Assembly: GCA_011046235.1 (NCBI GenBank) | Contig: DSAX01000065.1 | Location: forward strand, 1 to 33,378 | Source of the DNA: Methanobacteriota archaeon | Lineage (GTDB): Archaea; Thermoplasmatota; Thermoplasmata; UBA10834; DTMW01 | Direction of reading: 5' to 3' | DNA length: 33,378 bases | Shown here: piece after piece, positions 29,734 to 33,378 of the stretch | Layout: each line of letters starts with the position of its first letter | Position numbering within the stretch: the first letter of the stretch is position 1 | Notes under the pieces: model-generated | What the model was told of the DNA's origin: nothing | Seen by the model: the letters and a program-made list of their open reading frames with translations, nothing else | The model's database searches: none | Position numbers and translations under genes: made by a program

Positions 29734-32157
29734 ATGAGGCTGAACTACATCGAGCTGCGGAACTATCGTAAGTTCGAGAGGATCAAGCTGGAGTTCCCCG
29801 ATGGATTGGTCGGGATCTTGGGAAACAACGGCGTTGGCAAGTCGACCCTCGTAGAATCGGTCAGCTGGGCGCTTTTCGGCAATCAGAAGGAGATAGTCAG
29901 GACCGGCAAGGAGAGCATCAGGAGGAGCGACGCCCCGGATAACGAACCGACTTTCGTGAAACTGGAGTTCAGGTTCGCGGGCGACGAGTACGTCGTGACG
30001 AGGGAAATGAGTGGAAAGTCGCTCTCAATGGATGCTAAGCTGCTCATCAACGGGCATGTAGTCGCCACGGGGGCGAACGAGGTAACAAGCCTCGTACAGG
30101 AGAAGCTTGGAATGGACTACAAGTCGTTCTTCATCTCGGTCTTCGCGAGGCAGAAGGAGCTCAATGCACTATCGTCGCTGACCGAGAGAGACCGGAGGAT
30201 CACGATCGTCAGAATGCTAGGGATAGATCAACTGGACGATATAATAGACAACATTTCGAAATACGAGAGGGGTTCGCGGGAACGGACATCGGATCTCAGG
30301 TCTTTGCTGATAGACGAAGGCGGACAACCGAAGTCAAAGATCTTGGAGTCGAGTAGGAGCGAACTCGAAAAAGAGGCTACCGCGCTTTCGAAGGAAATCG
30401 AGTCGATGCGAGGAAGGCAATCGAAGCTCAAGGAGGAAGAGAAGGATACAGAGGACAGGTTGAGTAGACTATCCGAAAAGTTGCGAGGTCTTAGAGAGGC
30501 GCAGAAACTCCTGGAGAAGGATAAACGGATGCACGATTCAAGAAAGGAAAGAAGAGATCAGCTGGAGGGGGAGATCGCGGAGGCGAGAAAAGCAGCTGAG
30601 GAAGCTTTATCCTTACCGGAGCTGAACTCGGAGTATCAGACTCTCAAGAAGCAGACGGAGCAACAGATCTCGAATAAATCGAAGGCCGAGAGACTGAAGG
30701 AGATCGTGGGGGAAATCGAAGCCATCGATCAGGAGATCGCCGAGAACAGAGAAGAAATAGAAGAACTCAGCGAATCCCTTGAAAAGACCGCTTCGATCAA
30801 GGAAAAGGCCGACAAGACCGTTGAGATGATGAAGGCATCCGAGAAAGATCTCGTCGAACTGAGGAACGAAAAATCAAAGCTGGACCAGCAGATGACCAGC
30901 ATCGAGGAGAATATGAACTCGGAAAGGGAGCACCTATCTCAAATCGAAAAGTTGGGTCCTGAGAGCGTATGCCCTACATGCGAGAGACCCCTCGGGGACC
31001 ACTACGAACATCTCATGGAGAAGATGTCCTCGTCGATGAAATCCTCTGAGAATAAGCTTGAAGAGATACGAATTGCCAAGGAGATTGCAGAATCTGAAAT
31101 CAACGACCGGGCAAAGAAGATGGAGGCGCTCAAGAAGCGGCAGGAGGCCATTAAGCGGGAGGAGATGGCGCTTCAACAGGCCGAGCACTCAATGAAGGCG
31201 GCGAGTAAGAACATCGATAAAAACTCGCGTAGACGAGAAAAACTGGTATCGCAAATGAAGTCGATCGGAGAGATTGAATTCGATTCCGAAAAATTGAGCT
31301 CGCAGGAATCGAAACTCCGAGAGATCGAAAAGAGGAGGGACAGGCTGATAGGGCTGTCCACAATAGCAGGCAGATTGCCGGAACTGGAAAAGACCTTTAA
31401 GGAGATCGAAACTGAGCTGAAAAAGATGGGGGAGAAGATCGAGTCGGTACGAATCGATACAGGTGAAATAGTGAAGCTGGAAACCCTCGAAACCGAGCTG
31501 GTGGAAAAGAGAAAAGAGCTTAAGAAAAAATCGGAGGAGACTTACGAATCGATCGTCGGGCTGTCGGCAAAGAGGGAGTCGATCTCTGCGGAGATGAAAT
31601 CCATCGAGAGAGAGAAAAAATCACTTGGAGAGATCGAAGCACAACTCGCAGGTATTGAGGATAAACAGCGGAGCAGCTCGAAGCTGCTCGAGATAATGAA
31701 GGAGTTCAGAAAGGACCTGATCTCCAGGATCATCCCGACGCTCTCCCAGGTGGCGACGGACCTCATCCTCCAGCTGACGGAGGGGAAATACACCGCGCTC
31801 ACGCTCGACGAGGGGTACAACATATACATCGAGGACAACGGGGAGGAGCACAGGCTGGAGAGATTCTCGGGCGGGGAGACCGACCTCGCGAACCTATGTC
31901 TCAGGCTGGCGATATCCAAGGTGATTTCGGAGCGCGCGGGAACCGAGGGAATGAACTTCATCGTGCTCGACGAGATCTTCGGCTCGCAGGATGCCCTCCG
32001 GAAGAGGAATCTGCTGTCCGCGTTCAACGCGCTCTCGAGACAGTTCAGGCAGATATTCCTGATTACCCATATCGAGGAGATCAAGGACTCCCTCAGCGGG
32101 ATAATCGAGGTCTACGAGGACGAGCGGGGCGTGAGCCACGCGAAGCTGACCGCGTGA
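29734..32157 (+). CDS. rad50: Rad50/SbcC SMC-family ATPase
   Basis: Walker A GNNGVGKS, Q-loop FARQ, coiled coils with central zinc hook CPTC, signature FSGGE, Walker B IVLDE, ITH. Confidence 0.93.
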   Translation: MRLNYIELRNYRKFERIKLEFPDGLVGILGNNGVGKSTLVESVSWALFGNQKEIVRTGKESIRRSDAPDNEPTFVKLEFRFAGDEYVVTREMSGKSLSMDAKLLINGHVVATGANEVTSLVQEKLGMDYKSFFISVFARQKELNALSSLTERDRRITIVRMLGIDQLDDIIDNISKYERGSRERTSDLRSLLIDEGGQPKSKILESSRSELEKEATALSKEIESMRGRQSKLKEEEKDTEDRLSRLSEKLRGLREAQKLLEKDKRMHDSRKERRDQLEGEIAEARKAAEEALSLPELNSEYQTLKKQTEQQISNKSKAERLKEIVGEIEAIDQEIAENREEIEELSESLEKTASIKEKADKTVEMMKASEKDLVELRNEKSKLDQQMTSIEENMNSEREHLSQIEKLGPESVCPTCERPLGDHYEHLMEKMSSSMKSSENKLEEIRIAKEIAESEINDRAKKMEALKKRQEAIKREEMALQQAEHSMKAASKNIDKNSRRREKLVSQMKSIGEIEFDSEKLSSQESKLREIEKRRDRLIGLSTIAGRLPELEKTFKEIETELKKMGEKIESVRIDTGEIVKLETLETELVEKRKELKKKSEETYESIVGLSAKRESISAEMKSIEREKKSLGEIEAQLAGIEDKQRSSSKLLEIMKEFRKDLISRIIPTLSQVATDLILQLTEGKYTALTLDEGYNIYIEDNGEEHRLERFSGGETDLANLCLRLAISKVISERAGTEGMNFIVLDEIFGSQDALRKRNLLSAFNALSRQFRQIFLITHIEEIKDSLSGIIEVYEDERGVSHAKLTA

Positions 32158-33054
32158 TCAGGCGAACTCCCCGAGCTTCTTCTGGTCCTGGATGACTATC
32201 TCCTTTTCCTCGTGCGGGATGCCGAGCAGGTCCATCATGTACAGCGCGTTCTTGGCGGCCTTGGCCATCCCGTGGTTGTTGAAGTATATCCTGACCTCGT
32301 CCGCGTTCTGGATGATCTCCTCAAGGCGGGGCTTCCAGCGGCCCAGCTGCTCCTCGGAGTAGAGGTAGTCGTATCGGTTTATCCGGTGGTCGTCCTCCCT
32401 TTCGTCGTCCTTGAACCAGATATCGTAATTTCTCCCGTGGAACCTGACATAGGCGTGCCTGGCCGTAAGGGAGCGGGTAATCGGAAATGCCGGGCCGTCG
32501 ACTATCGTGTTGGTGATCCCGAACTCCACCAGAAGATCGAGCACATCCGATTTGAGCTCAGTCCCTCGATCGTTCAGCCAGCTCCTGTGGCGGAACTCTA
32601 CCGCGTACTTGAAGCGGTCCGCGCTGACGACCTCGAACAGCTTCCTCAGCTTCTGCATGCTCGCCTCGTCCAGGAGCTTGAAGTACGGCGAGAGCTGGAT
32701 CAGGACGGTGCCGAGGACTCCTCCGTCGGCGAGCGGTCTGATGCAGATATCCTCGAAGCTGGACGCCTGGGCCGCGGCCTTGTCTGCTGCGTCGTTCACG
32801 ATCGTCTGATGGGTTATTATCTGGGGCATCTTGACCGAGAAATCGAAGTCCGGGATCTGAGAGCTCTTCTCCACCCAGCTCTTCACGATATCCTCAGTCG
32901 GCACCCTATAGAAGGTTGAATTAATCTCGACCGTCGGGAAGAACTTGCCGTAGTAGTGCAACCACTCGAACCGCCTGTTTGCCAGGCTCGAGGGATAGAA
33001 CCGGCCTATCCAGTCATCGTATGACCAGCCCGAGCAACCGATCGAGACAACCAT
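32158..33054 (-). CDS. DUF72 family protein
   Basis: IGCSGWSYDDW, VEINSTFY, FSVKMP, LIQLSP, AVEFRH.SW, YVRFHGRN, RYDYLYS, YFNNH. Confidence 0.92.
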   Translation of the reverse strand: MVVSIGCSGWSYDDWIGRFYPSSLANRRFEWLHYYGKFFPTVEINSTFYRVPTEDIVKSWVEKSSQIPDFDFSVKMPQIITHQTIVNDAADKAAAQASSFEDICIRPLADGGVLGTVLIQLSPYFKLLDEASMQKLRKLFEVVSADRFKYAVEFRHRSWLNDRGTELKSDVLDLLVEFGITNTIVDGPAFPITRSLTARHAYVRFHGRNYDIWFKDDEREDDHRINRYDYLYSEEQLGRWKPRLEEIIQNADEVRIYFNNHGMAKAAKNALYMMDLLGIPHEEKEIVIQDQKKLGEFA

Positions 33055-33151
33055 ATCAATAATGATAATTGATTGAAGATAAAAAAATGTTATGCTCCTA
33101 TCTGATTTTTATCACTGTTTTATCTATACCGGCTTTTCGACATCACAACGC

Positions 33152-33158
33152 TTAATAT
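33152..33158 (+). promoter_or_regulatory. Putative TATA box (TTAATAT) for the downstream sRNA
   Basis: Lies ~24 nt before the start of the GC-rich structured region at ~33182, consistent with archaeal TATA-to-TSS spacing. Confidence 0.45.
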
Positions 33159-33181
33159 CCAGGGACAACCTGATATTCCAT

Positions 33182-33377
33182 GTCCGAGGTTCACCGCGAA
33201 AGCGATCGGCCCCGGGCGATCGTGCACCGAAATATGGGCCCCTTCAGGACCTTTGGGTGGGAACCCCAGGCATGACTGAGGGACAATAAGGTGCACAACA
33301 TTCCCCGGGCATGGGTCAGACCAGTGAGAGTGCGAGGAGCATACCGTGACCTGCGTTGTTATGCTCGGGGTACAATG
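33182..33377 (+). ncRNA. Archaeal box H/ACA pseudouridylation guide sRNA (5' GNRA hairpin plus two guide hairpins; may continue past the window)
   Basis: Hairpin 1: stem 33222-33228/33290-33296, K-turn GA 33248-49 / CAU-GA 33271-75, ACA 33298-33300, 15 nt from pocket top. Hairpin 2: stem 33303-33310/33363-33370, K-turn GA 33326-27 / CGU-GA 33345-49, ACA 33372-74, 14 nt from pocket top. Pockets are complementary to conserved 23S rRNA sequences. Folded by eye. Confidence 0.8.
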
Positions 33378-33378
33378 C

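Follow-up and report, generated by a model that had tools for sequence, protein, structure and literature searches.

A probable HgcG/Pab40-family box H/ACA guide RNA gene with two intact hairpins in an uncultured Thermoplasmata genome, and its predicted targets in 23S rRNA

What kind of gene occupies the 3' end of this archaeal contig, and which rRNA nucleotides might it serve? The stretch analysed here, referred to as the window, is a whole contig of 33,378 nt from a MAG (89% complete, 154 contigs). At its end, two consecutive H/ACA hairpins can be read from the sequence at 33222-33374 on the plus strand, in both of which a lower stem leads through a pocket to an upper stem bearing a K-turn, with an ACA box following, and the contig stops 4 nt 3' of the terminal ACA. 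We conclude, with a probability of roughly 0.9, that 33182-33374 (+) is a box H/ACA guide sRNA gene, an orthologue of HgcG/Pab40/Pf7/Afu4 with predicted targets in helix 69 and the A loop; the H/ACA interpretation of the locus as such is about equally probable.

All features below lie on the plus strand. The first hairpin (HP1, 33222-33296, corresponding to HgcG motif 2) was delimited from the sequence, from covariation and from the RF00064 alignment of the orthologue in genome G001. Its lower stem P1 pairs GUGCACC (33222-28) with GGUGCAC (33290-96), and its pocket strands lie at 33229-40 on the 5' side (guide 33229-39; C33240 is either unpaired or belongs to P2) and at 33283-89 on the 3' side. 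A 7-bp upper stem P2 (33241-47/33276-82) leads into a K-turn in which G33248 and A33249 face a CAU bulge (33271-73) followed by G33274 and A33275, giving the G:A pairs G33248.A33275 and A33249.G33274; a C-stem (33250-52/33268-70) and an apical hairpin (33255-67) lie beyond it. The ACA box, in the H-box position at 33298-33300, follows the lower stem after one A and is separated from the upper-stem base (33282) by 15 nt.

Across a linker of 6 nt, the second hairpin (HP2, 33303-33370, HgcG motif 3, delimited on the same three kinds of evidence) has a lower stem P1 of CCCCGGGC (33303-10) and GCUCGGGG (33363-70) with one G.U, pocket strands that serve as guides at 33311-18 (5') and 33358-62 (3'), and an upper stem P2 at 33319-24/33351-57 with C33354 bulged. 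Its K-turn comprises U33325.C33350 and then G33326 and A33327 set against a CGU bulge (33345-47) followed by G33348 and A33349 (pairs G33326.A33349 and A33327.G33348). The C-stem (G33328-C33344 plus 33330-33/33339-42) closes a 5-nt loop (33334-38), and the terminal ACA box at 33372-33374 is 14 nt from the pocket top. The G:A pairs of both K-turns are presumably sheared, and the distal pair lies 9 positions from the upper-stem base in HP1 and 9 (5' strand) or 10 (3' strand) in HP2. Other registers of the HP2 K-turn, with a GGUCA/UGACC pairing or 5'-bulged with UCA, were discarded: they are broken in G001, where the key pair becomes G.A, and they also invert the orientation relative to HP1. The rules given for archaeal H/ACA RNAs in the Introduction of PMC7075261 are an ACA at 15 +/- 1 nt, G:A pairs at 9-10 positions and at least 8 bp of guide pairing, and the two ACA spacings of the window RNA, 15 and 14, fall within the first of these.

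An initial annotation of this DNA had described the two hairpins, their K-turns and the 3' ACA boxes much as given here, with coordinates right to within 1 nt, and its spacings of 15 and 14 nt can be read directly from the sequence. It had also placed a TATA-like box and a CGC-GAAA-GCG hairpin (33195-204) ahead of the two hairpins, and both are there. The box, UUAAUAUC at 33152-33159, sits about 23 nt 5' of the first stem and aligns with a "GAAAnnGAUAUAUCC" BRE/TATA block that 28 sister-family relatives conserve ahead of the RNA; it is a putative promoter. In relatives a conserved GAAA..GAUAUAU promoter block lies about 25 nt 5' of the motif 1 hairpin.

Comparison with relatives, not the fold of the single sequence, was decisive in showing that the locus is more than a chance arrangement. 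The minimum free energy of the window RNA is unremarkable (z = -0.75; 47 of 200 shuffles fold equally well), and the opposite strand does not stand out from its shuffles either (z = -0.75 and -1.34 for the two strands). A BLAST-type search of 41 relatives returned a single clear homologue, at 80% identity, in G001, which belongs to the same family but another genus; the other nucleotide matches in these genomes (E 0.017-0.9) were treated as noise. The two homologues differ by four compensatory double changes within stems. A covariance model built from this pair found exactly one full-length match in each of 45 genomes out of the 49 from the order. A second model, built from 30 of the order sequences, found one match per genome in 117 of the 151 sampled genomes of the class (a tally that includes the unpublished genome G136, counted nowhere else). 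A pattern scan of named genomes gave 38 loci, and the relatives are uncultured Thermoplasmata MAGs. The DUF72 neighbourhood, proposed earlier as a guide to relatives, was not needed, and DUF72 synteny is absent in G001.

Covarying stems, which the initial annotation had suggested looking for, are pronounced. In the 30-sequence alignment 16 pairs show double changes, a number reached by none of 500 shuffles. Class-wide (49 sequences), 90.8% of cells are paired, 37 of 39 pairs have changed on both sides, and a covariation score of 0.624 stands above the shuffles (0.218; none of the 500 gets as high) and above slid partners, which give 0.104 at most. As this alignment had been fitted to the model, we checked it independently with MAFFT and RNAalifold on 16 diverse sequences, which recovered both lower stems, both upper stems (bulge included) and the apical hairpin; compensation was seen at 29 of 34 pairs. 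The letters that hardly vary among the 49 sequences are precisely those that form the ACA boxes, the pocket strands, and the G.A pairs together with the U ahead of them. In the HP2 K-turn, U, G and A are each kept in all 49 sequences, opposite G in 46 and A in 48; in HP1 the counts are U 48, G 48 and A 43, opposite G 44 and A 45. Guides are retained as GGGUCA (42-49 of 49) and GUUA (47-49) in HP2 and as GGG (45-48) and CAA (44-47) in HP1, while the columns of the ACA box read A 47, C 41 and A 48 in HP1 and A 47, C 45 and A 49 in HP2. Spacing is kept across the class as well: the HP1 ACA lies 15 or 16 nt away in 46/49 sequences and the HP2 ACA 14 nt (44/49) or 15 nt (4/49), that is 14-15 nt in 48/49, with the distal G:A pair 9 positions from the upper-stem base in HP1 (45/49) and 10 in HP2 (48/49). 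The locus is a real, conserved gene of a class of uncultured Thermoplasmata.

To which family does it belong? Rfam reports nothing for the window RNA: a gathering-threshold search of the whole window gave no hits, and neither did a search of 33150-33378 at E <= 10, so that the copy goes unreported even at this permissive setting and falls short of the RF00064 gathering score. At the same E-value limit, 33000-33378 gave only three weak C/D or sRNA matches in the AT-rich spacer at 33070-33145, which we attribute to chance (best 22.4 bits, cut-off 42). The relatives do match: 15 of 20 class loci hit RF00064, the HgcG RNA (Pab40), at E <= 0.01. Folding and Rfam, the checks first proposed for this locus, gave no support for the window copy itself (z = -0.75, no match); the support came from its relatives. 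A full match to a different RNA family, named in advance as evidence against the H/ACA reading, did not appear, as no other Rfam family matches. Against a gathering score of 77 bits for RF00064, locus L138 scores 78.7, while the orthologues in G001 (model positions 1-276, 43.1 bits, E 1.7e-9) and G006 (full length, 47.7 bits) remain below it. HP1 and HP2 of G001 fall on model positions 118-199 and 200-276, and the three H/ACA motifs of RF00064 map onto a 5' hairpin (HP0), HP1 and HP2.

Judged by homology, the window RNA is the Thermoplasmata orthologue of the three-hairpin family HgcG/Pab40/Pf7/Afu4; its membership is transitive, through 80% identity to G001 and the covariance models. The hairpin order is the same, the family guides of motif 3 (GGGU.A ... 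UGUUA) and motif 2 (GGUC ... AACCC/ACAA) can be aligned with those of the window RNA, and both have K-turns, ACA/ANA boxes and an AT-rich promoter on the upstream side. The earlier suggestion of a possibly undescribed RNA has to be withdrawn, given that its orthologues at the levels of family, order and class, tied to it by the 80% identity and the covariance model, match RF00064 over its full length. The kind of RNA is already known, and the window copy is a new, shortened member of it. It differs from HgcG in having two of the three consecutive H/ACA motifs of RF00064, motifs 2 and 3, with motif 1 represented by a 36-nt remnant that lacks pocket and ACA; in being too diverged for an Rfam report at E <= 10; and in its motif 2, where, unlike in HgcG, the K-turn is complete and a distal hairpin follows. 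A literature search for H/ACA RNAs in Thermoplasmata found none, a weak negative since the term "H/ACA" may go unmatched; the word "Thermoplasma" occurs 0 times in PMC4652768.

The remnant, HP0, is a 36-nt stem-loop predicted by folding at 33182-33217, with a basal 5-bp stem (33182-86/33213-17), a GGUU/GGCC segment and the CGC-GAAA-GCG hairpin at its top, and with no pocket. Relatives carry a full H/ACA hairpin of 53-62 nt with a K-loop at this position, and 29 of 30 order sequences have xACA before HP1 where the alignment places AUC (33219-33221) in the window. Because of these differences we regard motif 1 as decayed in the window lineage, which has evidently lost about 20 nt, the pocket and the ACA to arrive at a two-hairpin version. 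The 3' half of HP0 can still be aligned to G001; this half alone is usable, since in the 5' half MAFFT misplaced the window HP0, which is the shorter sequence. Across the class, an ACA before HP1 is present in only some lineages, and motif 1 seems to have been lost repeatedly. Scans of the G006 LSU, the window organism's own SSU and LSU and its own genome for a target of the relatives' motif 1 gave nothing convincing. The CGC-GAAA-GCG hairpin, initially taken as a separate feature, is therefore what is left of the family's third hairpin, located 5' of the other two. The initial annotation had allowed for a further hairpin at the opposite end, beyond the window; in relatives only a convergent gene follows the second ACA, and the RF00064 model likewise ends a few nt after it, so no hairpin has been cut off by the end of the window.

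The protein partners of an archaeal H/ACA RNP, of which cbf5, l7ae and nop10 had been proposed as a check, are all encoded in the same genome together with Gar1. Cbf5 (TIGR00425) scored 388.8 bits, Nop10 72.6, Gar1 37 and L7Ae 94.9, each above its curated cut-off. The Cbf5/L7Ae/Nop10/Gar1 guide layout proposed at the outset is in this way borne out by geometry, K-turns, ACA boxes, covariation, rRNA complementarity and four protein genes. By analogy with the archaeal RNP whose structure has been solved, the RNA would be transcribed from the TATA box at 33152-59; L7Ae would be bound at the K-turn of each intact hairpin and Cbf5-Nop10-Gar1 at the lower stem and ACA box; and the pocket strands would base-pair with the 23S sequences flanking an unpaired UN, the U of which Cbf5 would isomerise to pseudouridine. 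We infer transcription, RNP assembly and the actual pseudouridines from these features.

Which uridines would be served? The pocket strands were scanned against both rRNAs of the genome, whose single LSU gene (3653 nt) and single SSU gene lie on different contigs. HP2 pairs with its own LSU over 11 bp (5+6, one G.U) around U1963, in GUAAC-UA-UGACCC. HP1 has a single 11-bp site (5+6, one G.U) around U3320, in GUUGU-UC-GCCCAU. Both hairpins thereby offer bipartite complementarity of at least 8 bp around an unpaired UN (11 bp each). Shuffled guides equalled this pairing in 10 of 2,000 trials for HP1 and 23 of 2,000 for HP2, and shuffled rRNAs in 1 and 4 of 300, respectively. The G006 guides match the same two sites in the LSU of G006, and each of the three LSUs examined contains the two target sequences. 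E. coli numbering was taken from an alignment of the own LSU to K-12 23S, calibrated on what we take to be the position of the sarcin-ricin loop; by this alignment U1963 is E. coli U1915 in helix 69 and U3320 is U2555 in the A loop (helix 92). A scan of 12 x 11 combinations of HP2 pocket boundaries listed many further sites of 9-12 bp rich in G.U, which we dropped since they do not fit the pocket defined by covariation (33318/33358). According to Table 1 of PMC2377435, Pab40 motif 3 forms pseudouridine in vitro in domain IV of P. abyssi 23S, at position 2016. Pab 2016 would be the equivalent of E. coli 1915. HP2 is predicted to target U1915 of helix 69, in agreement with Pab40 motif 3; the domain IV target expected of motif 3 in RF00064 is recovered at the level of complementarity only.

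For HP1 the choice lies between two uridines. The A-loop site requires C33240 to be unpaired or part of the upper stem; if it is counted as guide, no site reaches 3+3 bp. The 5+6 bp of the window, with one G.U, are also weaker than the 7+6 that the class consensus ACAACCC would give. Tang et al. are said to have proposed an A-loop site for Afu4. Section 27 of PMC2377435 records an early assignment of Afu4 motif 2 to A. fulgidus 2601 (Pab 2647), which Muller et al. (2008) rejected by their own rules, assigning motif 2 of Afu4 and Pf7 to the equivalent of Pab 2678, a pseudouridine in H. marismortui. The distance from the A-loop site to Pab 2678, on its 3' side, is 31 nt, the same as between U3320 and C3351 of the own LSU (E. 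coli 2555 and 2586, respectively); the motif 2 site is ambiguous because GGGUU precedes both. Position 2586 is C in the window organism and in all 10 other readable order genomes (11 of 11 readable, 18 sampled, strict pattern), with U in none, so that the site preferred in the HgcG literature is replaced and the A-loop U2555 is the sole remaining candidate of the two.

We lean towards the A loop as the target of HP1, through U2555 in the canonical register or U2554 if A33283 is unpaired, at odds somewhat better than even. This preference follows from C2586 with HP1 nevertheless intact in 30 of 30 order sequences (compensated stems, conserved AUGGG(U/C) and ACAA), from the retention of letters needed only for A-loop pairing, C33284 (47/49) and G33236 (45/49), and from a U-to-C change at 33239 in the window that turns a G.U into a G-C with the A-loop target and would break a pair required by the 2586 register. 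The 2586 register would moreover give an ACA spacing of 13, outside 15 +/- 1. Motif 2 stays under purifying selection in the order despite C2586. More tentatively, and at a little under even odds, motif 2 may serve U2555 (or U2554) of the A loop, in this order at least and perhaps as its ancestral role, or else be a dual-site pocket that used the shared GGGUU and lost one site with the mutation of U2586. If that were true, the order would amount to a natural experiment on the old dispute over the HgcG motif 2 site.

In a competing account, which we consider unlikely, a genuine HgcG-family sRNA guides through HP2 alone, HP1 having been orphaned when U2586 became C and being kept for RNA stability or RNP assembly, its A-loop complementarity fortuitous. 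Such fortuitous pairing is to be expected in that the A loop and 2581-85 share GGGUU. The 2586 site is a pseudouridine in haloarchaea and the preferred target for motif 2 of Afu4 and Pf7 in the cited section of PMC2377435, and the 31-nt offset of the site chosen there by Muller et al. (2008) matches that of C3351 from U3320. The class consensus AACCC with GGUC could pair 5+4 bp with GGGUU-UA-GACC. AACCC is kept in all six aligned U2586 genomes (G053, G140, G144, G150, G054 and G168), and its CC is lost in the window, G001, the sister family and G138, where 2586 is C or unknown, an association drawn from a small sample without phylogenetic control; G086, with C2586, keeps the CC. Across the class, the strict patterns could be read in 11 C-type genomes, five of them from other orders, and in 11 U-type genomes. 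HP0 displays in the same RNA what true decay looks like, and an orphaned HP1 would leave unexplained its integrity in all 30 order sequences, the two letters accounted for only by A-loop pairing, the direction of the change at 33239 and the 13-nt spacing in the 2586 register.

Decay of the whole locus, with motif 1 lost and motifs 2 and 3 non-functional, is a far less probable reading. It would account for the degenerate motif 1, for a window copy below Rfam detection and for an HP1 3' guide two pairs short of the class consensus. It is hard to square with stems, K-turns and ACA boxes that are all intact at exact spacing, with stem differences from G001 that are compensatory (four double changes), with the presence of the four RNP protein genes and with two rRNA target sequences that are themselves intact. 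We give almost no credence to the idea that the locus is not H/ACA at all and that its hairpins arose by chance in a GC-rich spacer, belong to some other class of RNA or sit in a short coding region. A minimum free energy no better than that of shuffles and the overlap with short ORFs at 33092-33289 (+) and 33120-33377 (-) would suit it, yet the element is conserved class-wide in single copy with RNA-type covariation, its indels are not multiples of three, its relatives match an Rfam H/ACA family, and no other Rfam family matches.

With the window locus, an uncultured Thermoplasmata genome in which model-based annotation finds nothing gains an H/ACA gene with correct boundaries, and the HgcG/Pab40 family takes its place among the near-universal single-copy genes of the class (117/151 sampled genomes). 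The locus also documents the modular decay of one hairpin: motif 1 has been shed in the same lineage that keeps the other two, which would show that multi-hairpin H/ACA RNAs lose modules singly, and it supplies a testable argument on the 23S uridine served by motif 2. The knowledge of how H/ACA RNPs work is left unchanged. Both predicted targets belong to the functional core of the ribosome, where helix 69 bridges to the small subunit and the A loop holds the end of the A-site tRNA. Eukaryotic helix-69 and A-loop guides take H/ACA RNPs to the same functional regions of LSU rRNA, with yeast snR10 and the A-loop Psi2923 as examples, and Badis et al. reportedly described in 2003 a yeast snoRNA for the two most conserved pseudouridines. 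The yeast A-loop pseudouridine is presumably the equivalent of E. coli 2554, one nt 5' of our prediction. The eukaryotic RNAs, unlike the window RNA, rely on Nhp2 and lack a K-turn, and their H box has the form ANANNA.

A two-hairpin RNA of comparable layout is sR-h45 of H. volcanii, for which we take Hvo 2605 to be E. coli 2586 (our own assumption, together with PMC2377435, section 27). Both RNAs, as sR-h45 is presented in PMC7075261, have a 5' hairpin directed at domain V near the peptidyl-transferase centre and a 3' hairpin directed at helix 69. They share the G:A pairs of the K-turns, the 3' ACA and, between the hairpins, an H-box ANA. SL1 of sR-h45 makes Psi2605 (PMC7075261); the corresponding position is C in the window organism's LSU and in 10 other readable order genomes, and the 5' hairpin of the window RNA would thus not guide the Hvo 2605 equivalent. 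SL2 leaves UNUN unpaired and yields two pseudouridines, 1940 and 1942 (PMC7075261), whereas the guide of HP2 in the window RNA can also base-pair with U1917 and G1918 of the rRNA, as is typical of a layout for a single site. The hairpins of sR-h45 are separated by a linker of 56 nt (PMC7075261), compared with 6 nt in the window RNA, and the likeness of the two RNAs is one of layout.

The 23S (LSU) rRNA gene that carries the predicted target of hairpin 2 lies on the minus strand of contig C4 of the same genome (G000:C4, 19886-23538), and is interrupted by an intron of ~725 nt, at about own-LSU positions 1972-2696 (about 2458-3182 of L032, the stretch with the LSU gene). The insertion point falls 1 nt past the end of the duplex predicted to form between hairpin 2 and helix 69, counted from its final base pair, with exon/intron junctions of ...GACCCU / intron / CUUAAGG.... 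Within the intron, a 185-aa ORF (L032:2492-3049, minus strand) encodes a LAGLIDADG endonuclease (PF00961, E = 1.1e-16). Among relatives, the LSU of G006 carries an insertion of 254 nt slightly 3' of the own-LSU intron position, by a few nucleotides, and the LSU of G014 has no insertion at the corresponding 23S site.

The K-turn of hairpin 2 is canonical in all sequences of both the order-level (A2) and class-wide (A3) alignments. In hairpin 1 of the sister family, the second A of the bulged strand (the column of window position 33275) is replaced by U, giving GU instead of GA; this family accounts for 5 of the 49 sequences aligned across the class and most of the 30 from the order. Its hairpin 1 thus has a G.U at the expected A.G pair, and the adjoining C-stem is poorly paired. 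In G001, which belongs to the same family but another genus, motif 1 (about 1448-1510 of locus L003) has kept its K-loop and ACA, but the combined length of its 3' pocket strand and stem sets the ACA at ~18 nt from the upper stem, beyond the 15 ± 1 nt rule. This motif may be en route to decay, as in the window motif 1.

Upstream of the guide RNA gene, an ORF for an 807-aa SMC/Rad50-like ATPase (29734-32157, plus strand) and a DUF72 ORF (32158-33054, minus strand; PF01904, E = 1.4e-57) are convergent, their stop codons abutting with zero spacer. DUF72 and the guide RNA are divergent and separated by an AT-rich spacer of 97 nt. Weak Rfam matches to C/D-box snoRNAs in this spacer (33070-33145, plus strand) were judged to be chance, the SNORD73 match reaching 22.4 bits (E = 0.18) against a gathering score of 42.

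The LSU and SSU genes are on separate contigs (G000:C4 and G000:C25), in line with PMC3608112, where the rRNA genes of Thermoplasma are described as unlinked; the L7Ae gene lies upstream of the SSU gene, at a distance of 8 kb. In the single-contig relative G018, the LSU model matched piecewise at two loci almost 1 Mb apart, C1:817568-818398 (model positions 2144-2973) and C1:1770008-1770802 (model positions 16-851, in three pieces), which could mean that the rRNA gene is fragmented or masked, or that the split is an artefact of assembly.
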